Counted from the stretch's first letter, positions 852-20,603 are shown. The stretch: DNA of 32,000 bases from an uncultured Chloroflexia bacterium (GCA_963704755.1 OY969938.1:4650001-4682000), one strand, 5' to 3'. Translations and numbers: made by a program. The notes: a model not told the origin generated them from the letters alone.

Positions 852-928
852 ACTTCCCCTTTGTATATTTCCAAAAATACTCTAGAAGTAGTAGAGATTA
901 ATCTGCAGCCCAGCGATATTCGAAACTT

Positions 929-2662
929 TCACGAGATAAGGTTAGTGTACCTTTTAATTGAAGACTTTAATTCTTTTGCTCCTTGCATTGGCAATGTGGG
1001 TAACATGCTGAAATACTGACGTATTGCGGCATTAATCGCTGCCAGACATGTCTTTGTTTTTACCCAGTTTTGTGGGCTAAAAACTCGATTTGGTGGCTGA
1101 GGCTCGTTGGCGGCGGCTTCTAATGCTGTGTTTAAGCAACTACCTGCAATCTTTATTATTTGCTCAACTTGATTCCGAGTTTGAGCTTGATCCCAAGCTG
1201 CCTTAGGGCTTGCAACCATCTCGGGTAGATTACTCGCGATTGAATAGCACATGGATACTGCATACAACTGGTGGTAGGGAGCATAAGATTTCATAGCTAA
1301 GAGGGTTTCATTCAATCCGAGAGTATTCTCCGATGTCCATCCTTTCATAATTTCCTGCATCCAATAATTTAAAGCTTGGGCATCATTTGGTGAGTAATCC
1401 CTTTTAAATAATTGCTCGAAATACTTATCGAAAATCTTGGTCTCACTATAAGCAATATTTGGTCTTTGTGAATGCCAAGAGATTAAATATTTTCCAAGAT
1501 CGGATAGGTCCAAGATCATGGTTTTATCTTTCGATGGAGGAGCTGCCTCTCCACGTTTTGAAATAAAATAACCGTTTGTGAAGGTTTGTTCAAACGAGTG
1601 TTTTAAGTTTAGTACCCGTTTATCATTGCTCCTTAGATCACGAGGTTTCACCACACTTTGTGAATTTGTCGAGATACTGATTCGGTCAGCTCGTTCAATT
1701 TGCGGAATTTCATAAAAACGGAACATGATATAGGCATCTTGAATTTGTTTGGTACGCTCACTGCAAGATAAGATTGTATTTAACGATTGACAGCCATTGA
1801 CAACACTTAAACCGTTGAGCTGCAAAACCCCGCTCTCAGAGAGGTGCATATGGTTGCATATTGCAGTAATGCCATTATGGAAAAAGTAGAAGTCTCGATA
1901 TTTATCACTGTAAATCGTAGATCGAATCGCTTTATTGACTGGATTATTCAAACCGAGCGATTGTCGCACATTCTTCCGAAATAATGTACCATCCTTAATT
2001 CCAGGGAAAGTAATGCAATCTTTTAATTGAATAGCTGCCACCACAGCTTCAGTTCCAGCTATTTCCATCCTTATGTACTTATCAGGTTCTAATTGAATAG
2101 TATGACGCAGGGAAGGATTATCTTTCTCTAAGGCCATATCATATCGTCGTTTTAACTCTTCTTGATCAATCAAGTTGATGGAACAGGTTAAATCATCAGG
2201 TTTTGCAATAGTCTCCTGAAAAATGGCAAGGTCATGTGTCGCAGCTTGCGTTAATTGAGCAGTTGTTATCAATTCAAAGATAATTTCGTAATCATCTTCG
2301 AGAGCGACAGCCACTTCGGATAATTTCTGTTGTAGTTTTTGGTTGCAGTTTTCTTGTAATTTGATCATGTTTTTTAATTGAGCCCAGGATGATAATACTT
2401 CTCTCAGCGGCTCTGCATCTACAAGAGTGACCCCGATGAACTTACCCTGAATTACATAAATTGCACTATTTTCTTCATCAATGTAGATGGCGTCGATTTG
2501 TTTGTCATTCGCGCCATCAGTAATGTTATATTTCGTTTCATCCAGACTACAAAGATGGATATTACGCAGATACCAAGCTACAAATCTTTGCCCATCATTT
2601 GAAAAATTTTGAGTGTAGTAAAGCTGTTTAATTTCGGTTTTAATTTGCTCGTAGATATTCAT
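929..2662 (-). CDS. AIPR-family (abortive infection phage resistance) protein, paralogue 1
   Basis: 577 aa. The N-terminus has DGANDKQIDAIYID...VIQGKF (Mrr-like D..D-x-K/QxK pattern). The central part has FFHNGITAICN and VVNGCQSLN, which match the NG-h-T-h-h and h-h-NG-x-Q-[ST] hallmarks I recognise for AIPR proteins. A GGAG lies 7 nt upstream of the ATG. Confidence 0.75.
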   Translation of the reverse strand: MNIYEQIKTEIKQLYYTQNFSNDGQRFVAWYLRNIHLCSLDETKYNITDGANDKQIDAIYIDEENSAIYVIQGKFIGVTLVDAEPLREVLSSWAQLKNMIKLQENCNQKLQQKLSEVAVALEDDYEIIFELITTAQLTQAATHDLAIFQETIAKPDDLTCSINLIDQEELKRRYDMALEKDNPSLRHTIQLEPDKYIRMEIAGTEAVVAAIQLKDCITFPGIKDGTLFRKNVRQSLGLNNPVNKAIRSTIYSDKYRDFYFFHNGITAICNHMHLSESGVLQLNGLSVVNGCQSLNTILSCSERTKQIQDAYIMFRFYEIPQIERADRISISTNSQSVVKPRDLRSNDKRVLNLKHSFEQTFTNGYFISKRGEAAPPSKDKTMILDLSDLGKYLISWHSQRPNIAYSETKIFDKYFEQLFKRDYSPNDAQALNYWMQEIMKGWTSENTLGLNETLLAMKSYAPYHQLYAVSMCYSIASNLPEMVASPKAAWDQAQTRNQVEQIIKIAGSCLNTALEAAANEPQPPNRVFSPQNWVKTKTCLAAINAAIRQYFSMLPTLPMQGAKELKSSIKRYTNLIS

Positions 2663-2900
2663 AGATGGCTCCTAAAATGGCAAGTAGTAGTACGAATCTG
2701 ATTCACCGGAAAAGTTGATTTAAATTATTTTTATAGCTCTCTGCATAGCAGATTATCCCCTCCATTATGAGGTTCCTGTTTTATCTAGATTGCTACAGAA
2801 GGATTAATTGGCATATCAATCTCTTCTATCACCTGCTCAACATTATCAAACCAGTAATTCCGATATCCATCCACAAGAAATATTTTGACCGTTCTGCCAC

Positions 2901-5602
2901 TCATTGGTGGCAATCCTTAGTATTTTGCTTTATTGAGTATTGGGCAATCAATCCCTCTAGCGTCATATTTTCAGTAATTGCATCATGAGGGATGAGTGCA
3001 TATTGCCACGGTTTGCCACCGTATTCGAGGGCATGATCGGTTGCGCGCTTGCACCAGGTTACAGCCGCATCGCGCTTTGCCTGTACAATAGGTGTATCCA
3101 CCTCTCTGCTTGCTTTCGGTTCAAGCATGTAAATACATTTGGTCACCTCGGCAACGAAGTCGGGTTGATATTCCAGTTGTTCAACGCCTGCGGCATAATA
3201 GATTTGGAATTGCCCTAGTGCTGGTTTAAACCATTTTTCTGCATAGTGATCCAAAATAATAGCCAGTTTTCTTTCTGTATCCGATTGAAATTTTTGGACC
3301 GGATAGAGGCACCGGGTAAACCCACCAAATATGATTTGATTGATTTTGTTTTTGTCAGCGGGCGGTACATGAAAATCCTGAATGGGCTGTGCAGCATAAG
3401 AAGTAAAAGCGCTCTCTTTTAATGCCATAAAACCACGCGTTACATTTACTTCGTAACCACTGTTTTTTTCCCACCGATGAGCCTGCATTTGGCTATGGAT
3501 GAGGTTAGCTAATTGGCGTTGATAATAAACAACCACATTGAGCACTTCATCTTGACTAACCAGATAACTTTCTAGGTGACGTACCATTTGACCAGCCAGT
3601 TCATAAAGTAAATCAGCTTGGTTGTCATAGGAGATATCGGAGAAATCAATCAACTGCCGCACGATGTAATCTTCAAGTCTTGTTTCAGACGCAACCCGAT
3701 TGCCAGTGCTGAGGGATTCCTGCTCGTTGTTTTGTAAGCTGCGAATCAACAGATCTCGATCAACCGGCTGAAAATGAACATTGGTTGTATCGATCTGAAA
3801 ATTGTCGAAACCACTACTGACCACTCCGGTAGGAACGACCACGATCCGCGGGATATCAATAGTTAGTTTTTGTAATTGGATAACCGCCTGTTTTACGATT
3901 GCTTTAATGTCTGGTGCTGGCTGAGGCTCAAGCCCAGGTAATTCCGTTTGAGCGGGCGGTATATATTGCCTTTGAATCTCTTGCACGATTTCGTTCATCA
4001 CATTGGGTTGCTGTAAATGGGTCGATGTGGGCAAAAACTCACGTCTCTGAATGGCTTGATATGCAAGTTGGGCAACCTGTTGTTCTGCAGGGGTTTTAAA
4101 AATTGAAGATGGAATGATCCGAGTGCCCCCACTTAAAGAAGCTGTTAGTGTTACCCCGGCTAGTTTGACTCGCAATTGTTGGCGTTGCTAAGACGGTAGT
4201 CATCCGCGAATTATCGTCCGGCGGTTCTAGAATAAGTTGTTCTAACCGAATAACAGAATCGGGACGGTTGGCTTCATCCACAATCTCCTGGAATTTATCA
4301 TGGGCAACGATACTCAACCTGTCAACCGCTTTTATACCAGTTCTTTTGCCGAATGGTAGACGTAAACCACGACCAATAGATTGTTCAATCAAGATCCTTG
4401 CATTTGCGGCTCGTAAGGGAACAATTGTATAGAGATTGGTAACATCCCAACCCTCTTTGAGCATATTCACATGAATGACGATTTCAGTTGGTTCGTTAGG
4501 GTTTTCCACTTCTAGAAGCCGTGCGACAACTTCATCTTCTTTTGTGGTGGAATCAACTTGAATGACTTTTGTTTTGTAGCGTCCCTCAAAAAATTCATCA
4601 GATTGAATCAGGTTTAATAACGACCGAGCATGAGTTGTGTCCCGCGCAATAACCAACATAAATGGTTTGACAAAGGGTTTGCCCGTCTGCAGAGCATAAG
4701 TTTCCAATTCCACTTTAACGTTTTCGTGCAGACGAATGCCGTCTTGTAATTTGATTTGCTCAATCTCAGCAGGGGAGTGATTTTGAGGTTGAAAATTCTT
4801 TTGGGTCACGACCGCAGGCTCTTTAACAAAGCCATCTTGTAAGGCTTTTGCGAGCGGATAATCAAAAATTACATTTTTGAATGGAATGGCTCCTCGTCCT
4901 GTTTCGGTAAATGGGGTCGCGGTTAATTCCAACCCCAGAACTGGCTTGAGCTCATTAATCGCCCGTGCACCAGCGCTGGCTCGGTAACGGTGTGATTCGT
5001 CCATCAGCATCACCAGATCCGGTAAACCGGCCAGATAATCAAAGTAACTTTGCCCAATATACTCTGAAAGGCGTTTGATTCGAGGGGAATTTCCACCGCG
5101 AACCTCGGAGTTTATCTTTGATATATTAAAAATCATTAATTTTACATCGCAGAATACTGTCAAATAAGGTGCCGGCTGAATTTTCGTAAGTGTCTCCCGT
5201 AATAATTTCTGGGGGATTGGTAGCAAATTCAGCGATGCCTCTAAAAACGTATTTGGGTGTGTTGGGCGTAAAATCAGTAATCAGTTTATTGTAGATGGTT
5301 AGATTAGGCGCAAGTACAAAGAAATTATTCAGCCCATAAGCCAGATGCAAATAACTGATAAAAGCCCCCATCAGCCGGGTTTTTCCAACGCCAGTTGCCA
5401 GAGCAAAACAAAGCGAAGGAAAATCTCGTTCAAAATCAGTGACCGTAGGAAATTCTGAGTGAATGGTTCCCAGAACTGCTTGTAAATCAGGCTTTTTATT
5501 GGGCGGAGTAATTTCCATTACTCGGTCTAGAATTTCAAGTGAGCGTCGCTGCGGTGGACGCAGACTGAGTCGGCCGCTAATTGCGTTGACTAATCGATGC
5601 AT
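2901..5602 (-). pseudogene. res: Type III restriction enzyme Res subunit (SF2 helicase + PD-(D/E)xK endonuclease), read across three frames
   Basis: ORF 5126..5602 carries motif I (ALATGVGKTR). ORF 4096..5226 carries motif II (LMDESHRYRA) and later helicase motifs (VNMLKEGWDVTNL, QSIGRGLRL). ORF 2901..4175 carries a nuclease-type motif (YQPDF...MLEPKA). Frame breaks lie at about nt 5140-5165 and 4170-4185. The ATG overlaps the mod stop (TAATG) and AGGAGGGG lies upstream. Confidence 0.85.
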
Positions 5603-7371
5603 TAGTTTTCCCCTCCTAAATTAAAACCCAGTTGGCGCTCTACCGATTTTGAATCGATTAAATCTTCTTCATCTTGTTGGGTTAGAGGCGGAGTCAAGGG
5701 TAAGTTAGCTACTTGCAGACTATAATCGTCGTGACCGTATTCACAGCGGGAAAGCACCGCCTGAGGAATCTTTTTGATTGTCAGGTTGGGAATAGCATCT
5801 CCACTGGCGGAACGGAAGGCCGAGCACAATACCAAGAGCGTCCGTTGAGTTCCCACTTCTTCGCTGAGCGCAAGTAGTTGTTCATGGGTCAGGGTTTGTG
5901 TTGTGATATAGATAAAGTCCTGCTCTGTGGAATATCCGTGCATCCAATAGTGTTCGTCGCTGGGTGCATAAATAAACCCTTCCAGTTTACAAACAGCTTC
6001 TGTCAACATACCGGGGTTATATTGTTTGTTAATGACCCAGTTGCCCCAGTGGTCTTTCTCCAAAAGAGAAGGTGCTAACTGATAATAGCGGAATCCCCCA
6101 CCACCCCGCCACTTAAAAGCTTCGGTAATTCCGCTTAAATCTTCTCCATCAATCACTCTTTTCATCCGTGGAATGATATGTGTTTGGCAATGATCTCCTA
6201 ATTCCACCATGATCCAGCGTCTCCCCATCTTGTGAGCAACAGCACCTGTTGTGCCTGAGCCTGCAAAGGAGTCAAGAACAACGTCTCCCGCTGATGTAGC
6301 TAGTTCTAGGCAGCGGCGAATTAGTCTTTCAGGTTTTTTTCCCTTCCTAAAAGTAACTCCTCCTTCATTCGCTATGCCCTCCCAAGCGATATCAGTCCAA
6401 ATATTCGTCATGATCGCGCTAGCGGAAAGGACGCCATCAATTTCCACAACATTCTTTGAATAAAATAGTAGTTGTTGTCCATCGAGAATATAAACGGTAT
6501 CTAATCCACGATCTCGTTCAAGTTGAAATACTTTTCCGGGATTTAATTGAGACACTTTTTTTAGTCCGATAATAGCCTCTCCAGCACCAGTATCACTGAT
6601 TGATGCCAAGCGACAAACTCTACTTGCATTATCTACAATAAACTGATGAAAATGCTCTAAAGCAGAATCTGGTCTACGTGAGCGGGGAGGTGACGCTTTT
6701 TCATATCCATCCATAAGCGGGATTAATTTCCACTGATCGAATGGTTCACTGGGGTTATTTAACCATTTATTATAGGCATAATCTGGTGTGCGTCGAACTC
6801 TACCTGAGTTTTCAACGAAATTATTTTTATCATATGCATACCAAAGAATGTATTCAGATGCTTTAAAAACCCCCGGATTAACTGTGCTAAATGCAGAGGG
6901 TGAACGCGAAGAAACAGTGATCCTATTAACGAAGTTTGAGCGCCCGAACACTTCATCTAGCAATACCTTACAGTAATCCAGCTCATCATCATTTAGATGA
7001 ACAAACAATGACCCTTCCTTACATAGTAACTGACGTAGAACTACAAAACGCTCTCGCATCAGACCAAGCCAAATTGAATGTTCCAATCCATCATCGTAGT
7101 TTTCAAACATTTCACCTGTATTGAAAGGTGGATCAATATATATACATTTTACTTTTCCTAAAAATTCTGACGATAGAGCTTTTAAAGCCAATAAATTATC
7201 GCCAAATATCAAACGGTTATCGAAAATGTCATTATCCGTCACTCGATGGTTGGCATGAAAGCTTAATTCCGGATCTTCCAATAAAATGCGCGGTTCTAAG
7301 CGCGGTCGATTATCTTTGCCGATCCAGGTTAATTCCAATTTTTGTTTGTGATCAGTCATATTGAATTCCAA
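5602..7371 (-). CDS. mod: Type III R-M Mod subunit (beta-class N6-adenine/N4-cytosine DNA methyltransferase)
   Basis: 589 aa. Motif IV (CIYIDPPFNTG) lies N-terminal to motif I (VLDSFAGSGTTGAVAHKMGRRWIMVE), and the N-terminus KLELTWIGKD is typical. This IV-TRD-I order, followed directly by res, fits Type III. The track start at 7371 is a TTG; the first ATG is at 7359. Confidence 0.85.
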   Translation of the reverse strand: MEFNMTDHKQKLELTWIGKDNRPRLEPRILLEDPELSFHANHRVTDNDIFDNRLIFGDNLLALKALSSEFLGKVKCIYIDPPFNTGEMFENYDDGLEHSIWLGLMRERFVVLRQLLCKEGSLFVHLNDDELDYCKVLLDEVFGRSNFVNRITVSSRSPSAFSTVNPGVFKASEYILWYAYDKNNFVENSGRVRRTPDYAYNKWLNNPSEPFDQWKLIPLMDGYEKASPPRSRRPDSALEHFHQFIVDNASRVCRLASISDTGAGEAIIGLKKVSQLNPGKVFQLERDRGLDTVYILDGQQLLFYSKNVVEIDGVLSASAIMTNIWTDIAWEGIANEGGVTFRKGKKPERLIRRCLELATSAGDVVLDSFAGSGTTGAVAHKMGRRWIMVELGDHCQTHIIPRMKRVIDGEDLSGITEAFKWRGGGGFRYYQLAPSLLEKDHWGNWVINKQYNPGMLTEAVCKLEGFIYAPSDEHYWMHGYSTEQDFIYITTQTLTHEQLLALSEEVGTQRTLLVLCSAFRSASGDAIPNLTIKKIPQAVLSRCEYGHDDYSLQVANLPLTPPLTQQDEEDLIDSKSVERQLGFNLGGEN

Positions 7372-7375
7372 TCTT

Positions 7376-9013
7376 CTATGCCGCTTCAGGCTGATTGATA
7401 TGTGCCATAACAGTTTGGGCTAACGGTTCTGCATCAGTCATGGTCCTGAATATCTTTAAATACCCTTTTTGGTCAGCCGCAAACATAGGTTCAGCAATGG
7501 AATAAATTTGTTCTGCCAATTCCAATATTTGGCGAGATATTTCAAGTTTATCATTGTCAGAAAGAATGAGCTCGACTTTATTCAGTATTGCTTGATTGAG
7601 CCTGCCCCAAATATGCATAATGAAATACCGTCCATGCCGGAAAAACATTTGCCGGCGCCCCGTCTCAGCATTCTCCGCATGTTCAAATAAATTATCTATA
7701 TAACGAAAGATTTGCACTGCATGGTAAAGTTGCGTACCTGTCAGACCAGCCCGGAAAAGTCTTGAATAATAAGTGCCATTCCGATCACTAATCAAACTAA
7801 TTTCCCTTTTTGCGACAACGATTATCTGCGTCTCCCCTGAAAAACAAGCTAATGCTCGGGCAGCTTCTGACAAAGAGAATTGGTTTTCCTTACTGGACAA
7901 TGATTCTGCAGAAGGTCGATAATTATAAATAACTTCGGATATCGCAAGCTCCTGCCGCAATCGTTCTTGATTGGGATCAAGTGCCGCAAAATCCTCTCGG
8001 TTCACTGAGGTTTGTGTATTGCGTGCATGGGTTATTCGACGACCAAGCTCGATTGAATTCTCGTCAACTCCAATTTCCAATATCGTTACCATTATTCTTG
8101 CTTCGGCTGAAAGCTCACCAATTTGACTTGCTTGACCTATAGAACCAACTGTTTGTGCACCATTTACAATCGAAAAATTATTGAGAGTAAATGTGGCGCG
8201 ATCTTGATTGTTTGGAGCAAAATTATATTCCGAGCAAATGACTGTCAAACCATTATTTAGATAAAATAATTCATTAGGGTTTGCCTGAACCGTTTCGGAA
8301 ATTGCAACGTTTACAGCCTGATTGCCCAGGTAGTGCCGAATATTTTTCTGGAACAACGCATTTCCATATTGTTGATAAATTTCATTCAAATGAGATGCAC
8401 GAACAAACCCATAGACTGCTCTTCTGGGCTCAGTAAAATAATTCCAGTGCTCAACGGATATTTCCACGTTGATTGTCTCTATAGCTTGCTCTTCGGTAAG
8501 CCACCTGTGAATTACAGGTAGGCCAATATCGCGCCAGTCAAACCAATTTTTTAGTGCGTTCTGGCCTATTTTAAAAGCTTCTAGATCACTAATTGCATGC
8601 GGTCCTAATGGATTACCCAAATAGACAATACCTATTAAAATCTTGGTGTTTGGCATTCCAAGTGCTTCTTCAACCTCAGATTGAACACGTTCAAATTCTG
8701 GGTTGCGACCAGATTGGAAAAAACGTTCGTATCTCTCTGCTAATAGATCAGAGACCCCAGAAATAAAGGTAAGAGTAGAGGCACGATCTGGAGCATCACC
8801 AAATTTCGATTGAGCTAAACAAAGTATATTTTGTCTGCGATCATAATAAATTGCGTCAATCCCATTATCATCGCCACAATCTACGACTGAGGCAACAGAA
8901 TCGATATCACTACAACCGGAAAGCTTTTGAATGGAGAAAGCAGCTAATGCACGACTAAACTGATCCTTTCTTTGGTCTTCCTGAGGCCGATTAGGAAAAC
9001 GAGATGGCAACAT
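7376..9013 (-). CDS. AIPR-family protein, paralogue 2
   Basis: 545 aa with CGDDNGIDAIYYD...CLAQSKF at the N-terminus, and YLNNGLTVICS and IVNGAQTVGS centrally. The motif set and order match 929..2662, but the sequence is otherwise strongly diverged. Its stop lies 4-16 nt upstream of the mod start. Confidence 0.75.
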   Translation of the reverse strand: MLPSRFPNRPQEDQRKDQFSRALAAFSIQKLSGCSDIDSVASVVDCGDDNGIDAIYYDRRQNILCLAQSKFGDAPDRASTLTFISGVSDLLAERYERFFQSGRNPEFERVQSEVEEALGMPNTKILIGIVYLGNPLGPHAISDLEAFKIGQNALKNWFDWRDIGLPVIHRWLTEEQAIETINVEISVEHWNYFTEPRRAVYGFVRASHLNEIYQQYGNALFQKNIRHYLGNQAVNVAISETVQANPNELFYLNNGLTVICSEYNFAPNNQDRATFTLNNFSIVNGAQTVGSIGQASQIGELSAEARIMVTILEIGVDENSIELGRRITHARNTQTSVNREDFAALDPNQERLRQELAISEVIYNYRPSAESLSSKENQFSLSEAARALACFSGETQIIVVAKREISLISDRNGTYYSRLFRAGLTGTQLYHAVQIFRYIDNLFEHAENAETGRRQMFFRHGRYFIMHIWGRLNQAILNKVELILSDNDKLEISRQILELAEQIYSIAEPMFAADQKGYLKIFRTMTDAEPLAQTVMAHINQPEAA

Positions 9014-9149
9014 ATTGAAAAACCTTGCTTCTAGAATAGTTAAAACCTGTTTTTCTGTTTAATTCTGCACCAGCATTTGCTCTAAGCATAAAAATTATCC
9101 TGATTTATCAAAATATCTTATTCTGACATCTCTATTCGACATATATTGT

Positions 9150-11444
9150 TTAAGGTGCAACCATAGGGTATAAACGAATTTTTCCGCAACCCCCGCCGCA
9201 TTCCCAATAACTACCGCTTTTATTTTTAGTAGGAAGTTGATGACATTTTTCACATAAGATGGCATCTGCAAAAGCGAGCACATTTTCTCCAAAGGTTCGA
9301 ACCATATTATCAGAAATTCCTGCCGAATCAGGGCTAAAATGCGCTCCTACCTGGTTACGAATCCATGTATCTGCTGTCACCGACTTAATCAAGGGAATTA
9401 AATCAATCGACTTTGTAATGATACCTGCATCATCCAGATGCTCCACCCGTAGCAATTTTTGTAGATTTTTGTCAATGCAATCCGCTAATTCTCCTAAAGT
9501 GTACCGCGCCAGTTGTTTGCGTGGCAACCTGCATTGATAACGAAGGGTTAACTCGTCTAATAATTGCTCTAACAAAATTCCGGCTCGAGAAGCAATCGCT
9601 TGCCTGTCAACCTTCGGGGCAGCAACAACATTGCGCAATTCATTGACAGCTAACGGTGCATGACTATGTTTAATGCCACTTTGCAAATCCCAGCCATATA
9701 ATTCGATCAATTCCGCTGGCATTCCCTTCCCCTGTCGAACACGGTCAAACCAGGCTCGTGAATGAGTTGTGATGATCACATGGCCAAAGTTTGGTGCCTC
9801 ATCGTTAATAAGCTCAATCACCCGGTCAAGGTGCGGGTCATCCACAGACATTAGCACGTCATCTAATACAACAAGAGCATTTTCAGATTGTTTGGCTAGC
9901 GCCAGATAAACGCACAGACCCAATGTATCCAAATGAGCTTCACTATAATAGGCGACAGGAGAAATATCATTGTTGGTGCCAAATTTTCCCTTCATGGTGA
10001 GGGATCCTATTGTATTGGGTTTCATACCAAAACTAGGCTCACCAAGAGGCTCATTAGGATGGATACGAGCATAAAGTGCACTGACAGTTCCGCTAATTCC
10101 ATCAACAATATTTTGAACATGCTGCTTACGTTCCTGTTCGACAACAGCTAGTATTGCTCCCAACCGTTGGGAAACGGCATGTTTCATGGCTAATGATTGA
10201 TTTAGATCATCGATTGTTGCCAGATGAGTGCTAATTGCATTATGTTGCGCGATTTTTTGATCCCCAGAAACTATATCAAGTTCCAAATCAGATCGATTCG
10301 CAGACATTTTTTGAATTAATTGACGAAATTCATCTGATGCTGGCGAACTTGGAATTGCAGATAACCCCTTTGTTAATTTTGTTTTGGCAGGAAATAGCAA
10401 TTTGTGTAATTCATTCGCTGCGGATTGCCACTTTAGGTTAGCGACACTCCTTGCACCTTCTGATTGCTGAATTGTTGATTTATATTGCTCTATTTGATTT
10501 ACTATGGATTGAATTGTTTTTAGTTGAGTTAATTGATAAGTTATTTGAGATAGTAAGGAATCGTGCGGTTCTGGTTTTGAACAAACCGGGCAACTATTCA
10601 TTTCTGAATGTTTCTCCAAATAGGTTTGTGCACTTTGAAGCGTTGAGACTAAATCTGCATTTGTTTGCTTTAAACTAGCTTCTTCTAGTTGTTTTAATAA
10701 TGTCGTTTGTTTCAATAAGTTAGTATTATATTTAGCTTCTTCTATGACTAATTCATTCTCTGATCGCACAGCAGTATCAAATAAATCTCTCAATTCTTTG
10801 TCTTTGGCTAATTGAGTTTTCAAATCCTCAATAGATAGTTGAATAGCTCCTCGTGCCCAGAATAAACAATCACCAACAGGTTTTCCTTCAGCCTCCCAAA
10901 ATTGCTGTAAAGTTGTTTCAGCGGTATCTTTTTGAGTAATAGAACGTGTTACATCCTCTGAGGCGGTTTTATTTGCTGCACGCAATGAAGTCTCAGCACT
11001 TTCGATTTGAGGAAAGACAATAAATTCCTTAAGGTTTTTATATCGATCTCCATCATTAACTTCCATTATGCGGGTGATATCAGCTCGCCGAAGAATAAAT
11101 GCACGGGGTTGAGAAGATGGAGTTGTTACTGGTCTCGCGCCCTGCAATTTTGCATTCCAGGTCTGACCTCCATATATCATTTCTATTTGCAAGTCCTTTG
11201 GTTGCCCCAATGAAGAAACTATGTGAGTATGATATGGGGTTGTTCCATTACGGAGCTGAAGAGAACCAAATTCATTATTGCAAATAAAATCCAGCGCATC
11301 GGCAACAGAAGATTTTCCTGACCCATTTTCACCAAAAATAAGGGCTATTGAATGTTGTTGTTGGAACTCGAATACCACTGGTAAAGTTGCCCCCCGGAAA
11401 GAAGAAATCTGCAATCTTTCAATGCGTTTCTTACCTGTGGCCAT
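9150..11444 (-). CDS. SMC/Rad50-like ABC ATPase with a coiled-coil CxxC hook and a C-terminal HEPN-like + Cys4 module (RloC-like candidate anticodon nuclease)
   Basis: Walker A is FGENGSGKSS. A ~330-aa heptad-rich insert has CPVC (nt 10581-10592) near its midpoint. The signature-like segment is YSEAHLDTLGLCVYLALA, Walker B is ALVVLDDV and the H-loop is IITTHS. A ~170-aa tail carries RNQVGAH (nt 9339-9359) and CEKC...CGGGC (nt 9186-9254). The ATG at 11444 is preceded by GGGAGG; the track start at 11471 is a TTG. Confidence 0.7.
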   Translation of the reverse strand: MATGKKRIERLQISSFRGATLPVVFEFQQQHSIALIFGENGSGKSSVADALDFICNNEFGSLQLRNGTTPYHTHIVSSLGQPKDLQIEMIYGGQTWNAKLQGARPVTTPSSQPRAFILRRADITRIMEVNDGDRYKNLKEFIVFPQIESAETSLRAANKTASEDVTRSITQKDTAETTLQQFWEAEGKPVGDCLFWARGAIQLSIEDLKTQLAKDKELRDLFDTAVRSENELVIEEAKYNTNLLKQTTLLKQLEEASLKQTNADLVSTLQSAQTYLEKHSEMNSCPVCSKPEPHDSLLSQITYQLTQLKTIQSIVNQIEQYKSTIQQSEGARSVANLKWQSAANELHKLLFPAKTKLTKGLSAIPSSPASDEFRQLIQKMSANRSDLELDIVSGDQKIAQHNAISTHLATIDDLNQSLAMKHAVSQRLGAILAVVEQERKQHVQNIVDGISGTVSALYARIHPNEPLGEPSFGMKPNTIGSLTMKGKFGTNNDISPVAYYSEAHLDTLGLCVYLALAKQSENALVVLDDVLMSVDDPHLDRVIELINDEAPNFGHVIITTHSRAWFDRVRQGKGMPAELIELYGWDLQSGIKHSHAPLAVNELRNVVAAPKVDRQAIASRAGILLEQLLDELTLRYQCRLPRKQLARYTLGELADCIDKNLQKLLRVEHLDDAGIITKSIDLIPLIKSVTADTWIRNQVGAHFSPDSAGISDNMVRTFGENVLAFADAILCEKCHQLPTKNKSGSYWECGGGCGKIRLYPMVAP

Positions 11445-11643
11445 CAAGTCCTCCCGTTTCTTCGATTTCAATTGTTTTTTCTATCAATAATTGCCAATCC
11501 TCTGGTTTGGATACGCCTCCTACCAATATTTTTATTGCTTCGGGACCATATATCGCAGGTAGTAACCCTTCACTAACTAACCGGGTCACAGTCTTTTTTG
11601 CTAACAACTCGCAAGGTGTCGTGTACGGAATTTCATCTATCAT
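11431..11643 (-). CDS. Small (70 aa) acidic-tailed protein of unknown function, translationally coupled to the ABC ATPase
   Basis: A strong SD (GGAGGA) lies 6 nt upstream of the ATG at 11643. Its last 14 nt overlap the ATPase ATG (GATGGCCACAGGTAA). I recognise no family. Confidence 0.6.
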   Translation of the reverse strand: MIDEIPYTTPCELLAKKTVTRLVSEGLLPAIYGPEAIKILVGGVSKPEDWQLLIEKTIEIEETGGLDGHR

Positions 11644-11708
11644 TTTTTATCCTCCACTAATTGCAAATCCCCACCAATTAGAAAACGTCCATTGTTACAA
11701 AAGATTTG

Positions 11709-14561
11709 CTAAATAATCTCCCAACGGATGCAAAACAATTTTGAAAGCGATTGCTGTTGAGTCATTCGGCTCTCAGTATCCCTAATTATTTCATCTCTTT
11801 GAGTGTCTATTTCGTCTTGCGCTTGGAAAAGAGCCCGACGTTTCTCCGTTCTTTCTTTTTCAAGAGATTTCACTTCTTTTTGAGCCGCAAGTTTTTCTTC
11901 TAAAGTCAAAGCAGCGATGGCATAACGCCGGGCTTCTTTGATTCTTCGATCATATTCTTTAATTTCCCGCTCCAACATGACTTTGCGATCATCCGACCAG
12001 GCTTCTAATTTACTAATTTCGGCCTCGAAGATTTTTGCATTCCTCAGACTAATTTCTAACAGAATGGTTTTTTGAACATCCGCTGTTTGACCATCAAGGG
12101 TAGGGGGTGGTTCGATCAGTTCGGTTCTACCATTAACTTGTGCAGGCAGTTGAAACAATCTTCGAGCTATGTCTTCTTCTAATAATTTCCCATCATCGCT
12201 GAATGCAGTCCAAATCAGCCTATCTTCAATTTGAGAAAGTGACTCAACAGATAATTGAGATAATTGACACCACCCTTGTTTTACTGGCAAGTTTTCAAGA
12301 ATGGTAACTTTATTGGGGGCACTGGAATAATCAAAAATCAATTCAGCGAGCACTAGAGAACGCTTTTTCGCCTGTTCAATTACTTGTTGCGCCAGAGGAT
12401 GAGATAAACGATAAAAATATGCATCGCCTGAACGGCGCGGCAACTCATAAAGACCGGTCGGTATATCCTCATGCCCATAACGGCCATCATTCAGAACAAA
12501 CGAAGAATCGCTAATAAAATTGGCATGGCCATCTAATTCAAAAGCGGTCAGCTGCATTAACATCTGCTCATACCGATTAAGATTTTGTCGTGTATCGATT
12601 GCTCGAATACGCAACTTCTCTTTTACTTCATCATCAAAATGTTCTAGCAAAGATTGGCGAGCATAAGTCATAGCTTCTTGGATTTGGTCACTTAATTCTT
12701 CTTGCAATTGATCAAAAGAGGCGTTTATTTCTTCTGAGGTTCGACAATTCTGGTAAATATCAGCAATGCGCGTCTCAAAGGCAACACCTGATTCAATTGC
12801 ACCTAAAACTTCATCACTGGCACCAAAGACTCCAGCAAAAAGTTGAAATTTTTGGTCCAGAAGTTCATAAACTCGTTGATCAGCAGCGTTCTTTTTGTTT
12901 AGAAAATTAACCACAACAACGTCGTATTGCTGACCATAACGATGACAACGGCCAATTCGCTGTTCCACCCTTTGTGGGTTCCATGGAAGATCATAATTTA
13001 CAACCAAAGAACAAAATTGCAAATTAATACCTTCCGCTCCCGCTTCTGTAGCGATCATAATCTGACCTTCATCATGAAAGTAATCTACCAGCGCGGAACG
13101 CATATCAGCTGTTCGGGATCCGGTTACCCGGTCTGTACCTTTGAATCGGGTTATCCAATCGTTATAAATTTGTTTCGATTTAGCATCATTGTTGGAACCA
13201 TTAAACAAAACGACACCATCTTGATATGGGCTGTCTATCAATAATTTTAAAAGGTACTCCTGGGTTCGGCGAGATTCAGTAAAAATAAGTGCTTTGGGGG
13301 CTGAACCGACTTCAGCTGCTTTGGTAAAAGCTGTCTCTAAGGCTTTCAGTAAGGCTTTCCCTTTAGCGTTTTCGGTAATCGATATTGCCAGGGTGTAAAA
13401 CCCCCTTAGTTCAATAATCTCCGCTTCCAGGGCTTTTCGCTCGGTTTGTGTCAGATCAGGAGGTTCATCCTGCTGATCCCACTCCTCGGCTATTTCATCC
13501 AAAGCTTCATAATCCTCATCCAAAGTATCTTCAAGCGATTTGAGAGATGATTCGGCTTCATCGAGTTTTTTTTGCAGGCGTTTAGCCATTTTATCGAGGG
13601 CACTTGCAATAGCAAAGGAAGAACTTGCAAGCAATTTTCTAAGGACCAAAGTAAGCAATTGGCGTTGACTCGAAGGCAAAGCATGCAATTCTGGTTTACG
13701 CAGATATTCGGAAACCAGGTCATAAAGGATTAATTCGTCATTGCCGGGGGTAAATTCCTGTAAAATGGGCAAGCGTTTGGTGTACTTAATGTAAGGCAGG
13801 ACTTGGCTGCGTAAAGTGCGCTGGCATATAGGTTTTAACCTTGCCTTGAGGGTTAGAAAAGTACTTGGATCATTTAGATCACTGAATTGCTCTCGAAAAC
13901 TTCTAAGATCACCAAAGGTATACTCGTCAATAAAACTGACTAAACCAAATAATTCAAGCAGCGAATTTTGCAAGGGTGTAGCGGTTAGTAATAATTTATT
14001 AAACCCTTTAAGTGTGTCGCGAAGTTCATTTGCAATTTTATTGGATTTTTTGTACACATTACGGAGGCGATGAGCTTCATCAATCACAACCAGATCCCAT
14101 GGAATGCGCATAACCTCAGAAGATTTATTGCGGGCAAAATGATAAGAGCAGATGGTTATATTATCCCCTTCAAAGGGATTGCGTTTACTTTCTTTATAAA
14201 TATGATTGAATGATTTTGTTTCCAGAATTTGACATGGTAAAAAGAATTTTTCTTGCAATTCCTGAAACCATTGTTTGCGTAAATTTGAGGGGGTAATAAC
14301 TAAAATATGTCGTTTTCGTTCTGCCCAACATTGTGAAATGACAAGTCCAGCCTCAATGGTTTTTCCCAGCCCTACCTCATCGGCTAACAAAGCCCCTTTT
14401 GAAAGTGGCGATCCAAAGGCAAATAAGGCGGCATCAACTTGATGCGGGTTCAGATCCACTTGTGCATCCACCAGAGTTCCAGCAAGTTTTTCAGGATCAT
14501 CAGCTGAATGTCGCTTGGTTAATTCGTAGGCAAAGTATTTAGCGTGATATGCAGTAAGCAT
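11709..14561 (-). CDS. SNF2/RAD54-family SF2 helicase with a ~400-aa C-terminal extension ending in a coiled coil
   Basis: 950 aa. Motif I is LADEVGLGKTIEAG, motif II is VVIDEAHRLRN, motif III is LLLTATPLQNSLLELF, and motifs V/VI are ATEAGAEGINLQ...NPQRVEQRIGRCHRYGQ. The N-terminal YHAKYFAYELT and the charged heptad-rich tail (aa ~850-930) lie outside the helicase core. Confidence 0.9.
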   Translation of the reverse strand: MLTAYHAKYFAYELTKRHSADDPEKLAGTLVDAQVDLNPHQVDAALFAFGSPLSKGALLADEVGLGKTIEAGLVISQCWAERKRHILVITPSNLRKQWFQELQEKFFLPCQILETKSFNHIYKESKRNPFEGDNITICSYHFARNKSSEVMRIPWDLVVIDEAHRLRNVYKKSNKIANELRDTLKGFNKLLLTATPLQNSLLELFGLVSFIDEYTFGDLRSFREQFSDLNDPSTFLTLKARLKPICQRTLRSQVLPYIKYTKRLPILQEFTPGNDELILYDLVSEYLRKPELHALPSSQRQLLTLVLRKLLASSSFAIASALDKMAKRLQKKLDEAESSLKSLEDTLDEDYEALDEIAEEWDQQDEPPDLTQTERKALEAEIIELRGFYTLAISITENAKGKALLKALETAFTKAAEVGSAPKALIFTESRRTQEYLLKLLIDSPYQDGVVLFNGSNNDAKSKQIYNDWITRFKGTDRVTGSRTADMRSALVDYFHDEGQIMIATEAGAEGINLQFCSLVVNYDLPWNPQRVEQRIGRCHRYGQQYDVVVVNFLNKKNAADQRVYELLDQKFQLFAGVFGASDEVLGAIESGVAFETRIADIYQNCRTSEEINASFDQLQEELSDQIQEAMTYARQSLLEHFDDEVKEKLRIRAIDTRQNLNRYEQMLMQLTAFELDGHANFISDSSFVLNDGRYGHEDIPTGLYELPRRSGDAYFYRLSHPLAQQVIEQAKKRSLVLAELIFDYSSAPNKVTILENLPVKQGWCQLSQLSVESLSQIEDRLIWTAFSDDGKLLEEDIARRLFQLPAQVNGRTELIEPPPTLDGQTADVQKTILLEISLRNAKIFEAEISKLEAWSDDRKVMLEREIKEYDRRIKEARRYAIAALTLEEKLAAQKEVKSLEKERTEKRRALFQAQDEIDTQRDEIIRDTESRMTQQQSLSKLFCIRWEII

Positions 14562-14600
14562 TTTTTTCTCAGTTTAATAAGTGGTATTTTTGCATGAAGA

Positions 14601-14843
14601 TTATGCTAAAGGAGAAATCTTTTCGTAAACTAAAAGATCCCCCACTTGGCAATCAAAATATTCACACAAAGCCTTAATCACGGGTGCGTCATAGCGGGAT
14701 ACTTGATTGTTCGCCCAGGAGTTGAGTGTAGACCAGGCAATGCCGGTCTCGCGCTGCACATCCATCAAAGCAATGTTTTGCTGCTGTATGGTCGCTTTTT
14801 GAGCCAACAAAATGCGAAAGTGATTGACAATTTTTCCGGTCAT
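14601..14843 (-). CDS. XRE/Cro-C1-type helix-turn-helix transcriptional regulator
   Basis: 80 aa. NIALMDVQRETGIAWSTLNSWANN fits the XRE HTH pattern and ALCEYFDCQVGDLL is the typical C-terminal helix. GAGG lies upstream of the ATG. Confidence 0.8.
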   Translation of the reverse strand: MTGKIVNHFRILLAQKATIQQQNIALMDVQRETGIAWSTLNSWANNQVSRYDAPVIKALCEYFDCQVGDLLVYEKISPLA

Positions 14844-14871
14844 ATGTGACCTCGCGTAGCATCTTTCTTAA

Positions 14872-14900
14872 ATCATAGGTGAGGACACACAATTTGTCAA
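14872..14900 (-). promoter_or_regulatory. Near-consensus sigma-70-type promoter for the XRE gene (and possibly the whole minus-strand train)
   Basis: On the minus strand: TTGACA (14900..14895), a 17-nt spacer, then TATGAT (14877..14872), about 28 nt upstream of the XRE ATG. Confidence 0.5.
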
Positions 14901-14949
14901 CGAAAATAGAGCACAAGTCGATTATGATCCATGTTTTTCAAATAATGAT

Positions 14950-14973
14950 AAAATAGAATATAAATTCTATTTT
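14950..14973. promoter_or_regulatory. Perfect palindrome AAAATAGAAT-ataa-ATTCTATTTT in the divergent intergenic region (candidate operator)
   Basis: Perfect 10-bp arms at 14950-14959 and 14964-14973, lying between the minus-strand XRE gene and the plus-strand module. Confidence 0.4.
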
Positions 14974-15197
14974 TAAAAGTCCAATAATAAAATCACCGGT
15001 AAAAAAAGACATGATCAACCTAAGTACCTATCAACTCTTCTTTCAGCCAGTTCATTCGCCTCCACAACGTTGGATAGTAACCATAGTGGCTTGCTTCGGT
15101 TCTGTCTATGAGCCAGGGTTATTCACATACCAAGTTTTAACAACAAATGCTCTGCAGATTTTCTGTGGCAAATGGGGAAATATTGGGAGGATTGTTT

Positions 15198-16121
15198 ATG
15201 AGGAGATCAAACCAGGTAAAAGCCAAATTCGCTTTGAGCCGCTACAAGCCATCAATTCTGATGAGTTACCTAAATATGAAATACTTATTCGCGAGGAGGC
15301 AGTTGGTCCTAGAGGAAGAACTCGCTGAAATTTTAGGTCAAGAAGACATTGTCAAATTAAACCTAATGGAAGCACTTTACGAAAAACGTACTGAACGTCG
15401 ACAAGAATTTATCGCTTGGTTAATCGGCCGGCTTCAGATCTTTGGGTATCATAATCTTCCACCGGATATGAAACCAAATCCTACTGAAAAAATTGAAGAA
15501 CATTTTGATTTTCCCATTAAAGGTACACCAGCTGAGTTTGGCGTCATGCTCCGGCAGTTTACCCAGATACTACATTCTCAAACTGAACATCACCAATTAG
15601 TATGCCAAACCCTTAATCCGGGCAACCATAAAGATATTAGTAGCATTCCTTCAGATGCTAACCCTGTTGAGGTAAAGCTTACTGCTGGAAAAAACCTGCT
15701 ATCAATTCATGCCCATGTTCTTCCCTCAACAGGATCGTTATTGCGTATACATTTGAATGGGGATAGAACCCTATGGCTCCTATGGGATAAAATTCGAGAT
15801 GAACTTGAAAAATTGGGGTGGTTTTCATTACCTGATATTCCAGAAGAACCTGCTCGTAATGAAATTAAACCAGAACCCCAACCTCAAGAAAAATTACCTC
15901 CTTCTGAAGTATGGATGGGCATTCCAGATGTGGGTGCTAACCGGGAGATACTCCGTTTCTGGTATCAGGGATTTACTTGCGGGCAGATTGCTGTTCGAGT
16001 AGGTCTGAATGGAAAAACGGTCCTCAATCGGATCAATAAATTAAGAAATGAATTTGGTATCCAGATAGTTCCTTATCGAAAGTCAAATTTCATCAAGAAA
16101 CCGAAAGATAAACCCTCCTGA
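15198..16121 (+). CDS. Hypothetical protein with a C-terminal sigma-70 region 4/LuxR-like HTH. It may be the 3' part of a longer gene beginning at 15011.
   Basis: GGGAGG lies 7 nt upstream of the ATG at 15198. The C-terminus is ILRFWYQGFTCGQIAVRVGLNGKTVLNRINKLRNEFG. ORF 15011..15328 overlaps it in the -1-relative frame and reads like genuine protein. Confidence 0.55.
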   Translation: MRRSNQVKAKFALSRYKPSILMSYLNMKYLFARRQLVLEEELAEILGQEDIVKLNLMEALYEKRTERRQEFIAWLIGRLQIFGYHNLPPDMKPNPTEKIEEHFDFPIKGTPAEFGVMLRQFTQILHSQTEHHQLVCQTLNPGNHKDISSIPSDANPVEVKLTAGKNLLSIHAHVLPSTGSLLRIHLNGDRTLWLLWDKIRDELEKLGWFSLPDIPEEPARNEIKPEPQPQEKLPPSEVWMGIPDVGANREILRFWYQGFTCGQIAVRVGLNGKTVLNRINKLRNEFGIQIVPYRKSNFIKKPKDKPS

Positions 16122-16460: not shown

Positions 16461-16668
16461 AACCCTCCAATTGTCACAGGAGGAGCAGGGCAGGTTGTTA
16501 GCGCGCGTCTACGCTTTCATCCTCAGCGATCAATTTACAGGAACACAAAAAGAAATTAATGCGGTCGAAACAGACCAGAAAATCTCAAAGAATAGCAAGA
16601 ACAATAAACACGTAATCTCACAAGAAATAGACGCTCAATTTGTCCAAAACCAGGAGCCATTGCCATGA
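16444..16668 (+). CDS. Small hypothetical protein (74 aa)
   Basis: The ATG at 16444 overlaps the end of the RHH gene. Its stop overlaps the next gene's start (ATGA at 16665-16668), which suggests operon-style coupling. Confidence 0.4.
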   Translation: MNQPAETLQLSQEEQGRLLARVYAFILSDQFTGTQKEINAVETDQKISKNSKNNKHVISQEIDAQFVQNQEPLP

Positions 16669-19313: not shown

Positions 19314-19542
19314 AGAATTTATTAGTGATCCCTATGCGGTGCTTGCCCTGGCAGTTGTGTTCAAAGCTGCCTTGGATCTCAAGAGTAAGAATCCGACCTG
19401 TGTTTTGGAAGCTCGGACCTGGCTGCAATTCGTGGGTTTGAGCTGGTGCCAAATGCTGGGAATTTCAGAAAAGGAGATATCCAAATGGGTTGCTGGGAAC
19501 TATTCTCTTCCACCCAATGCTCACCGTAACTGGCGTTATTAA
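19306..19542 (+). CDS. Hypothetical protein (78 aa)
   Basis: The ATG overlaps the end of the replication gene by 8 nt. No recognisable motif. Confidence 0.4.
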   Translation: MNEEFISDPYAVLALAVVFKAALDLKSKNPTCVLEARTWLQFVGLSWCQMLGISEKEISKWVAGNYSLPPNAHRNWRY

Positions 19543-19604
19543 AGACTTTCCAGGTTGGCTCGCTACAACCGGAGCAATTCTTTGCAATTTCGAATACTCG
19601 CTTA

Positions 19605-19636
19605 TTTGTTCTATGGTATATAATAGATAGAACAAA
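19605..19636. promoter_or_regulatory. 10-bp inverted repeat enclosing a TATAAT box (candidate promoter/operator for the membrane-HTH/integrase operon)
   Basis: TTTGTTCTAT (19605-19614) and ATAGAACAAA (19627-19636) are perfect inverted repeats. The 12-nt spacer contains TATAAT (19619-19624). Confidence 0.35.
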
Positions 19637-19807
19637 ATAATAAGACGGTTCGTGCAGATGTAGCGAGCACCTACACGAACCTGACCCCAACCACCGTTCA
19701 AGCCGGCAGTAGGGGCTGATCATATTATAGCCGATCAGCCAGGATTCGCCCTCGGTGGGAGTTTATCACCGGGGGCATTCTATTGCCCCCTAATAAGGAG
19801 GCAATTT

Positions 19808-20593: not shown

Positions 20594-20603
20594 GAGGTTT
20601 TCA

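Follow-up and report, generated by a model that had tools for sequence, protein, structure and literature searches.

The window analysed here is a stretch of 32,000 nucleotides (nt) from an uncultured Chloroflexia bacterium (GCA_963704755.1, OY969938.1:4650001-4682000). It carries what is probably a composite defence operon, in which a backbone made of a helix-turn-helix (HTH) regulator, an SNF2 helicase and the two genes of a type III-like restriction-modification (R-M) system, Mod and Res, has a two-gene cassette embedded in it. The cassette encodes a small acidic protein and a Rad50/SMC-like ABC ATPase with a C-terminal domain that appears HEPN-like. All genes of the locus lie on the minus strand; an earlier sequence-only reading of the window, which had described the SNF2, small and ATPase genes as an undescribed three-gene module, gave coordinates that match exactly. 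On the same strand, 3′ of the ATPase gene, follow an AIPR gene, Mod, Res and a second AIPR gene, and the locus is laid out as follows (coordinates are those of the whole window):

14601..14843, minus strand: XRE/HTH_26 regulator, first gene of the backbone (Pfam HTH_26, 1.3e-14)
11709..14561, minus strand: SNF2 helicase of 950 amino acids (aa), backbone, DrmD/BrxHII/RapA-like family
11431..11643, minus strand: small acidic protein of 70 aa, isoelectric point (pI) 4.7, obligate partner of the ATPase (Shine-Dalgarno (SD) sequence, overlap, conserved homologues)
9150..11444, minus strand: Rad50/SMC-like ABC ATPase of 764 aa, with coiled coil, zinc hook, HEPN-like C-terminal domain and zinc ribbon
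7376..9013, minus strand: AIPR/AbiU-like (Abi-alpha-like) gene, second embedded defence gene (Pfam AIPR, 5.4e-39; PADLOC AbiU, 4.8e-31)
5602..7371, minus strand: type III Mod methyltransferase of 589 aa, backbone (PADLOC MTase_III PDLC03636, 7.2e-194; Pfam N6_N4_Mtase, 2.5e-36)
2901..5602, minus strand: type III Res helicase-nuclease, backbone, in three frames (PADLOC REase_III PDLC03648 matches all three open reading frames (ORFs))
929..2662, minus strand: second AIPR/AbiU-like gene, 3′ of Res (PADLOC AbiU, 1.5e-34)

The ATG of the ATPase gene is preceded at a distance of 5 nt by GGGAGGA; the longest ORF, from a TTG at 11471, has 773 aa, and homologues of 760-790 aa are numerous. The following elements can be placed within the protein:

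11310..11333, minus strand: Walker A motif GENGSGKS, aa 38-45 (41-sequence alignment)
10581..10592, minus strand: CPVC zinc-hook motif, aa 285-288, at the apex of the coiled coil in the structural model
9153..9659, minus strand: C-terminal domain, aa 596-764, helical and HEPN-compatible, with a beta hairpin and a terminal Cys4 zinc ribbon
9339..9359, minus strand: RNQVGAH, aa 696-702, an Rx5H HEPN-type motif (alignment conservation)
9186..9254, minus strand: Cys4 zinc ribbon, C731, C734, C749 and C753 (alignment conservation)

Residue conservation was taken from an alignment of 41 sequences (A1). In the Walker A motif E39, N40, G41, G43 and K44 are invariant and G38 and S45 are conserved to at least 90%. 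Equally invariant are D528 and D529 of Walker B, H561 of the H-loop, S501 and H504-L505-D506 of a signature-like SExHLDTLG motif, and C285, P286 and C288 of the hook CPxC. An AlphaFold2 (AF2) model with a predicted local distance difference test (pLDDT) score of 88.4 consists of a Rad50/SMC head and a long antiparallel coiled coil (aa 145-461), in which CPVC forms the apex loop between helices 265-278 and 294-307. The top Foldseek matches in the PDB are Rad50 (7zr1, 1e-13), SMC, JetC and LmuB, Pfam recognises P-loop/SMC-type families only, and the best PADLOC matches are to LmuB (PDLC03859, 1.8e-21; PDLC03865, 5.1e-20), a similarity that need not mean orthology. The Pfam family AAA_13 (PF13166), which we take to be that of PrrC and RloC, reaches 30.6 bits, short of its cut-off of 36, and aligns with 57 residues only (aa 515-571). 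The predicted model makes the protein a coiled-coil ABC ATPase of the Rad50/SMC type that carries a zinc-hook motif.

In the AF2 model the C-terminal 169 residues (pLDDT 91.8) are helical, apart from an inserted beta hairpin and a zinc ribbon at the very end. With R696 and H702 invariant and N697 and G700 conserved to at least 90%, R696-N697-x-x-G700-x-H702 presents the HEPN Rx4-6H motif with a polar residue after the arginine. Other invariant residues of the domain are R614, G622 and E626; within the Cys4 ribbon C731 is invariant, while C734, C749 and C753 reach at least 90%, and the domain profile is weakly similar to L37a/eL43 zinc ribbons. Foldseek comparison with the PDB yields only weak matches, none of them significant, the best meaningful one being 1wwp_A (probability 0.93, TMt 0.56, E 0.16), together with 5yep_B of the SO_3166-SO_3165 entry (E 0.54); both chains are presumably HEPN domains, and SO_3166-SO_3165 presumably a HEPN-MNT pair. 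No match was found in Pfam (any HEPN family included), PDB sequences, PADLOC or PHROGs, and a Foldseek search of a viral structure library returned nothing meaningful. The domain, a predicted ribonuclease (RNase), is labelled HEPN-like because the Rx5H motif is invariant and the predicted fold compatible; this label is supported, not proven.

A profile of this domain recovers 927 representative clusters among 1.84 billion representative proteins. In the best 150 of the 927 the domain sits at the C-terminal end of proteins of ~700-820 aa with the same architecture, or of shorter and probably partial ones, and none of these 150 provides a bridge to RloC or PrrC. The exception among them is P0260, a protein of 2635 aa in which profile positions 74-113 are matched in 44 stretches, perhaps because the protein is repetitive, perhaps as an artefact of composition. 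ATPases of ~604-619 aa that do not have the HEPN/zinc-ribbon domain form a subclade (P0056, P0059, P0066, P0069, P0113-P0119).

Relatives of the ATPase are patchily distributed, with 239 among ~186,000 species genomes; at the level of clusters (50% identity, E <= 1e-10) the family has ~640 members in more than 15 phyla, and no homologue was found in the phage collection. Of these 239 relatives, 80 loci from GTDB species genomes of more than 15 phyla served as the ATPase-anchored sample, in which denominators below 80 refer to loci with enough flanking sequence.

In the window the small ORF is preceded by GGAGGATAAAAAATG, a strong SD sequence, and the ATPase ATG lies 14 nt inside it (overlap 11444-11431). 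A hidden Markov model (HMM) places a homologue of the small ORF directly 5′ of the ATPase gene in 73 of the 80 loci, loci without SNF2 included, and three of the seven loci without a detected small ORF are truncated by a contig end. Across the family the small proteins are 60-75 aa long and acidic (median pI 5.1) with an almost invariant D-W motif, conservation being 95% for W50, 89% for G43 and 88% for D49. The 70-aa protein of the window has no match in Pfam, PADLOC, NCBIfam or PHROGs, and none in PADLOC even at E <= 10. A HEPN-less, 608-aa version of the ATPase (L007, 9802-11827) keeps the small upstream ORF and stands with it alone among housekeeping genes, and in L020 the small ORF adjoins an ATPase match that covers aa 7-610 only. 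Since the small gene is kept by the HEPN-less version, the small protein is probably not simply an antitoxin of the RNase domain; its retention speaks for a protein that does more than that and binds the ATPase module, with the head or the coiled-coil base as the predicted site.

Seen from the ATPase, the surroundings of the cassette are recurrent. Among six loci inspected one by one, the order HTH, SNF2, small ORF, ATPase, an optional extra gene, an N6_N4 methyltransferase and ResIII appears again and again. An SNF2 homologue lies 5′ of the ATPase in 53/64 loci (83%), Mod and Res lie 3′ of it in 40 of 55, and SNF2, the small-ATPase pair and both R-M genes occur together in 38/51; the gap between ATPase and Mod measures 12-43 nt in 20 loci. 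The type III genes come from two or more lineages, a second, classical one (Res with RE_endonuc) substituting for the first in some loci. Chance falls far short of explaining the adjacency of small ORF and ATPase or that of SNF2 and ATPase.

The pair is met in other company as well. No SNF2 gene is found 5′ of the ATPase in 11/64 loci, and in several others inserted genes separate SNF2 from the pair, which occurs alone or in other contexts in L007, L010, L016, L020, L021, L046, L058 and L089. L071 has the ATPase gene within a type I R-M operon, with hsdM on one side and hsdS/hsdR on the other, and Hymenobacter plasmids carry the pair without SNF2. A distant pair of a 68-aa ORF and an 822-aa ATPase on the Halorhabdus tiamatea plasmid pHTIA (L090, 6887-9551) is flanked by pglX and pglZ within an archaeal BREX-5 locus, where a helicase-related gene follows downstream; the ATPase of this pair aligns over the full length with an hhalign probability of 100% and retains the hook as CPLC. 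The arginine of RNxxGxH appears to be missing from this protein. Four loci (L018, L055, L077, L080) combine SNF2 and the pair with no nearby Mod/Res homologue of the lineages searched. The ATPase is further found in islands, on plasmids and beside conjugation genes.

The SNF2 helicase itself comprises an SNF2-rel_dom (aa 54-254) and a Helicase_C domain (aa 436-543), with no Pfam domain in the ~350 C-terminal residues. It matches PADLOC DrmD (PDLC02619) at 2.5e-206, and the NCBIfam DrmD alignment spans aa 34-927; the NCBIfam model DrmD_b gives 693.6 bits against a cut-off of 950, the aligned part (aa 29-666) being the helicase core only. The PADLOC BrxHI/BrxHII model (PDLC02500) aligns with aa 480-916, and the best PDB sequence match is RapA. 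Across phyla SNF2 homologues are 44-69% identical, and an HTH gene lies just 5′ of SNF2 in L003 and L004 and abuts or overlaps the SNF2 start in L091, L092 and L093.

A second sample of 80 metagenome loci was picked by similarity to SNF2 (43-68% identity), and here the constant companion is another one. Mod lies 3′ of SNF2 in 37/40 loci with at least 8.5 kb downstream, and 23 of these 40 have Mod and Res without the ATPase. Of 57 loci whose downstream flank measures 3 kb or more, only 5 (5/57) carry the ATPase. Plasmids, too, frequently have full-length SNF2 homologues (44-55% identity), for example conjugative plasmids of Salmonella (IncFIB) and Klebsiella (IncFII). The gene order is HTH-SNF2-IS256-Abi-hypothetical-Mod-Res on the Salmonella plasmid, HTH-SNF2-Mod-DUF262-Res on the Rhizobium plasmid and HTH-SNF2-Mod-Res on the Klebsiella plasmid, with no ATPase match in these three plasmid records at E <= 1e-5. 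Conversely, SNF2 lies in cis to 20 of 21 full-length plasmid homologues of Mod.

Several observations on these plasmids may be added. HTH-SNF2-Mod-Res is a common sight on the conjugative IncF plasmids that Salmonella and Klebsiella carry (L091, L093 and further plasmid matches), and E. coli plasmids have SNF2 matches of a similar kind. On the Klebsiella plasmid the backbone adjoins the ssb/psiB/psiA leading region, and plasmid backbones are annotated only as 'SNF2-related protein', 'site-specific DNA-methyltransferase' and 'DEAD/DEAH box helicase'. On Rhizobium plasmid p7 (L092) a 74-aa ORF and an 832-aa zinc-hook (CPVC) ABC ATPase form a pair at 19196-21918 on the minus strand, directly after HTH-SNF2-Mod-DUF262-Res and convergent with it. 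Its ATPase is remote from that of the window (BLASTP 6e-4), and the pair suggests a wider superfamily of cassettes that join a small ORF and a hook ATPase with varied C-terminal domains.

The restriction genes of the backbone belong to at least three Mod/Res lineages from many phyla, enterobacterial conjugative plasmids included. The third lineage (L159, 8552-18096; L102, 9989-19463; L146) combines SNF2 with an N6_N4 methyltransferase of ~1040-1130 aa and a ResIII protein of ~1070-1130 aa; neither DUF1998 nor PLD was found in these two large genes of L159 and L102, which were the downstream genes scanned there. The slots within the backbone hold known or candidate defence genes as cargo, namely a Schlafen-like ATPase, DUF2130, RmuC, a GajA-like OLD-TOPRIM protein, HerA and DUF3800 (L005, 8816-9580; L017, 7033-9794; L026, 12336-14312; L029, 11791-13563; L054, 8079-9767), as well as AIPR. 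In unrelated backbones AIPR genes recur between SNF2 and Mod, whether the ATPase pair is there or not (L003, L034, L039, L100, L109, L110, L119, L169, L172). The backbone acts as a landing place for defence cargo, which parallels reports on Hma, BREX and DISARM. In Mantel tests, run on 40 complete loci, r is 0.86 for Mod-Res, 0.29 for SNF2-ATPase, 0.27 for ATPase-Mod and 0.20 for SNF2-Mod; the high value for Mod-Res and the low values for the other three pairs indicate modular evolution.

Within the window itself, the first AIPR gene (9013-7376) matches the PHROG 'Abi alpha-like' at 6.8e-79. The Res fragments match PDLC03648 at 9.9e-19, 2.1e-115 and 1.3e-80, and a tblastn search with the intact 909-aa Res of L003 aligns at 75-86% identity in frames -2, -3 and -1, which places two frameshifts near 5160-5200 and 4140-4200. 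The split Res is either a pseudogene or an assembly error; if it is a pseudogene, restriction would have been lost here with Mod and the embedded genes still intact.

The closest precedents for the cassette are the R-M-linked anticodon nucleases (ACNases). RloC, an ACNase that excises the wobble nucleotide, combines an ABC ATPase and a Rad50-like coiled coil bearing a CxxC hook with a HEPN-class nuclease at its C-terminus (PMC2610378, PMC3710099); its ACNase triad reads Arg-x3-Glu-x36-52-His (Davidov & Kaufmann 2008, PMC2610378), and ABC ATPase-HEPN fusions linked to R-M have been documented (PMC2610378, PMC3710099). The ATPase described here follows the same order, with an ABC head split by a coiled coil with a CxxC hook and then a C-terminal domain predicted to be of the metal-independent RNase type (HEPN class). 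It is also of similar size (764 aa compared with 658-897 aa), its hook cysteine is at position 285, C291 being one of the hook residues of the G. kaustophilus protein, and for RloC, too, there are cases of linkage to type I or type III R-M. However, RloC is rarely R-M linked, whereas the present family is so in ~75% of loci. The ATPase also differs in having RNxxGxH together with a conserved E626 ~70 residues upstream, an extra terminal Cys4 ribbon, and an obligate small upstream partner that is not described for RloC. An identification as RloC, compared by description only, was rejected on the absence of the published triad and on an AAA_13 match that is partial and below threshold.

PrrC has been described as always linked to an R-M locus (PMC3458546). 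Guards of the PrrC type are kept silent by the R-M enzyme until an anti-restriction factor activates them. Like PrrC in PrrC-EcoprrI, an ABC-ATPase-HEPN protein embedded in a type Ic R-M operon, the ATPase of the window lies within an R-M operon, between SNF2 and Mod/Res, and its relative in L071, between hsdM and hsdS/hsdR, shows the exact prrC arrangement. PrrC, in contrast, has neither coiled coil nor zinc hook and is about half the size; the cassette described here has a small partner, its host is mostly an SNF2-linked type III-like R-M system, and silencing by that system is unproven. Linkage is strong from the cassette side (~75-83%) and optional from the backbone side (~10%); of this pattern PrrC shows the cassette-side half. 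By analogy, the cassette may work like RloC and PrrC. R-M-linked guards that join an ABC ATPase and a HEPN domain are known; what is new is the C-terminal domain, which the libraries searched do not recognise, the extra zinc ribbon and the obligate small subunit.

The SNF2-anchored and plasmid backbones that have no pair, and the pairs that have no SNF2, identify HTH, SNF2, Mod and Res as the backbone and the small gene and ATPase as an embedded cassette. On balance we favour the reading that the locus is a composite defence operon, in which an SNF2-linked type III-like R-M backbone hosts a small-ATPase cassette that probably acts as a guard of the PrrC/RloC type. The backbone would form the first line of defence by restricting unmethylated DNA, with the cassette and the AIPR/Abi gene embedded between SNF2 and Mod. 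The ATPase head and coiled coil, with the small protein bound, would hold the C-terminal RNase silent. Inhibition or overload of the restriction machinery, presumably through some contact of the cassette with SNF2, Mod or Res, or an accumulation of DNA ends or damage, would be the trigger that releases the RNase, and cleavage of its putative RNA target would abort the infection, making the cassette a second-line effector.

Several points weigh against this reading. All of its steps are predictions, the RNase activity of the ATPase included. The assignment of a HEPN fold combines a motif with weak Foldseek matches (E >= 0.1), and the R-x3-E...H triad of RloC is not seen among the invariant or nearly invariant C-terminal columns. 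The small gene is present in the HEPN-less L007 and beside the partial match in L020. The 83% co-occurrence with SNF2, together with the four loci that hold SNF2 and the pair without Mod/Res (L018, L055, L077, L080), could mean a direct partnership between SNF2 and ATPase. Finally, Res is frameshifted in the window, so the first defence line may be dead here, yet the cassette is intact. A more far-reaching version is tentative: HTH, SNF2, Mod and Res might constitute a distinct, unnamed and widespread class of restriction system that depends on SNF2, with the pair as a co-adapted guard that monitors the SNF2/Res translocase or its DNA ends and fires its RNase upon blockage. If true, this would add a new sensor-effector pairing, an RNase domain family not known before and a small subunit of a new type that binds Rad50.

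The composite operon has to be weighed against readings that tie the same genes together differently. It is unlikely that SNF2, the small protein, the ATPase, Mod and Res form one integrated machine similar to BREX or DISARM, in which the ATPase would be a core subunit such as a DNA clamp or loader. The backbone occurs without the pair in 23/40 SNF2-anchored loci and on enterobacterial, Rhizobium and Klebsiella plasmids, other cargo takes the same slot, the pair is found alone, in type I R-M and in BREX-5, and the co-phylogeny of the ATPase with Mod and Res is weak. These observations stand against the full gene order in 38/51 ATPase-anchored loci, which span more than 15 phyla and two or more Mod/Res lineages, the tight spacing between ATPase and Mod (12-43 nt in 20 loci), and the dedicated ATPases that BREX, Hma and similar large modification-based systems contain (PMC12839542). 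That the ATPase is a housekeeping DNA-repair protein of the SbcC/Rad50 type, next to a helicase by coincidence, is highly improbable: its similarity to Rad50, SMC and SbcC in sequence and fold, and the RefSeq Gene Ontology term 'double-strand break repair' attached to it, are set against the lack of an Mre11/SbcD partner, the patchy distribution (239 relatives in ~186,000 species genomes) in islands, on plasmids and next to conjugation genes, the conserved nuclease-like C-terminal domain and the embedding in R-M and BREX operons.

The model of the sequence-only reading is a self-contained trio, in which SNF2 senses DNA and licenses the fused RNase with the small protein as adaptor or inhibitor; we consider it somewhat less likely again than the integrated machine. 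SNF2 lies immediately upstream in 53/64 loci, four loci hold the trio with no detectable Mod/Res nearby, and distant pairs of a small protein and a zinc-hook ATPase again adjoin SNF2-containing systems (BREX-5, L090; Rhizobium, L092), but the ATPase accompanies SNF2 in 5/57 SNF2-anchored loci compared with 37/40 for Mod, 11/64 ATPase loci have no SNF2, the co-phylogeny of the two is weak (r = 0.29) and inserted genes split SNF2 from the pair in several loci. Much of that reading stands nevertheless at the level of genes. The three genes are real, co-directional and downstream of an XRE regulator, and they recur side by side across phyla. The long non-helicase part of SNF2 corresponds to the ~350 residues without a Pfam domain. 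The coiled-coil ABC ATPase with Rad50 hook and HEPN-like motif is borne out by the Rad50 match in Foldseek and by the invariant CPxC and R696/H702. The translational coupling and conserved partnership of the small ORF agree with the strong SD, the 14-nt overlap and its presence in 73/80 loci. Conservation of the neighbours, a check which that reading proposed, holds from the ATPase side (small ORF 73/80, SNF2 53/64) and breaks down from the SNF2 side (ATPase 5/57). What had been taken for one module is one backbone gene, whose constant partner is Mod/Res, beside a two-gene cassette. The boundaries were drawn too narrowly, as the operon runs on into AIPR, Mod and Res; Mod and Res had gone unnoticed and the RloC/PrrC precedent unmentioned. 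The logic of an SNF2 sensor that licenses an RNase is conceivable but unsupported, and to speak of an 'undescribed three-gene system' claims too much; experiments are warranted on the cassette as well as on the backbone.

Other described systems share parts of the locus. The match to LmuB of Lamassu covers the coiled coil and head, with a structural match to LmuACB (9uxh_F), and both systems have an SMC-like sensor, a small accessory subunit and a nuclease effector. In Lamassu, however, the effector LmuA is separate, whereas the predicted effector of the cassette is part of the ATPase polypeptide; no LmuC HMM matches the small protein, and a zinc hook and embedding in R-M are added. Lamassu was rejected as an assignment, with no LmuA or LmuC among the scanned neighbouring proteins and similarity to LmuB only. 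The SNF2 protein is a full-length, RapA-like relative of DISARM class 1 DrmD and of BrxHII from BREX types 3 and 5, and in all of these it accompanies an N6/N4 methyltransferase and a second helicase; the partners here are type III Mod and Res, and not DrmA, DrmB (DUF1998), DrmC (PLD), BrxC, PglX or PglZ. DISARM was set aside with no DUF1998, PLD or DrmA/B/C among the scanned window ORFs and with SNF2 below the NCBIfam DrmD_b cut-off. These HMM scans and the gene content agree with the earlier placement of the locus outside Lamassu, DISARM and Zorya, and in PADLOC-DB v2, Pfam, NCBIfam and PHROGs no named system covers the ATPase C-terminal domain or the small protein, in line with the same reading.

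Hma, which that reading had named as the closest concept, to be tested explicitly, is rejected on the definitions of HmaA, HmaB and HmaC and on PADLOC scores. The system consists of HmaA with a NOV_C/DUF3883 nuclease, HmaB, a 5-methylcytosine (m5C)/DUF1156 methylase, and HmaC, a DUF499 ATPase (PMC8565338, PMC11232893, PMC12839542). The concept of helicase, methylase and ATPase and the frequent embedded defence genes are shared, whereas the methyltransferase here is an N6_N4 type III Mod and the ATPase ABC/SMC-like. The HmaA match (3.7e-49) covers the generic SNF2 core only, with no NOV_C, and HmaC is absent from the best 25 of the 35 PADLOC matches of the ATPase and from those of its separately scanned fragments. 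Classical type III R-M of the EcoP15I-like Mod2Res1 kind is matched through REBASE-derived PADLOC models (7e-194, 2e-115), and Mod and Res share one operon in the window, where Res has no intact frame. The constant association with SNF2 and HTH and the cargo slots set the backbone apart from classical systems. A type III R-M system with an SNF2 partner was not found as a described system in the searchable literature or in the HMM libraries; a 2020 classification of ABC ATPases might cover it.

Current defence-finding HMM sets miss a conserved cassette, and all that PADLOC would show is an isolated LmuB-like or DrmD-like gene beside type III R-M. Should the favoured reading of a composite operon hold, the PrrC/RloC paradigm would widen to a new C-terminal nuclease-like domain and an obligate small subunit. 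Clinically relevant IncF plasmids commonly carry the SNF2-linked type III-like restriction backbone, which serves as a docking site for other defence genes; backbone and cassette can both be tested directly in E. coli.

The locus may be transcribed from a single candidate promoter:

14872..14900, minus strand: promoter-like TTGACA-17-TATGAT, 11/12 consensus positions, upstream of the XRE gene; candidate operon promoter by consensus match only

This is the top-scoring sigma-70-like site within 700-15200, and no terminator-like site was found in the minus-strand intergenic gaps of the locus. The site before the XRE gene and the lack of terminator-like sites in the gaps are consistent with a single long operon.

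The plus strand beyond the locus carries a 324-aa ORF without a family match (15147-16121), an 882-aa DUF3854 protein (16665-19313) and an HTH protein, a large serine recombinase (20604-22019) and an AbiEii toxin (23762-24484). tRNA genes were sought as an integration site, and none was found in the window. The GC content climbs from ~40% to ~50% around 16.5 kb of the window, and this change, together with the recombinase, AbiEii and DUF3854 genes on the opposite strand, therefore places the operon in an island.

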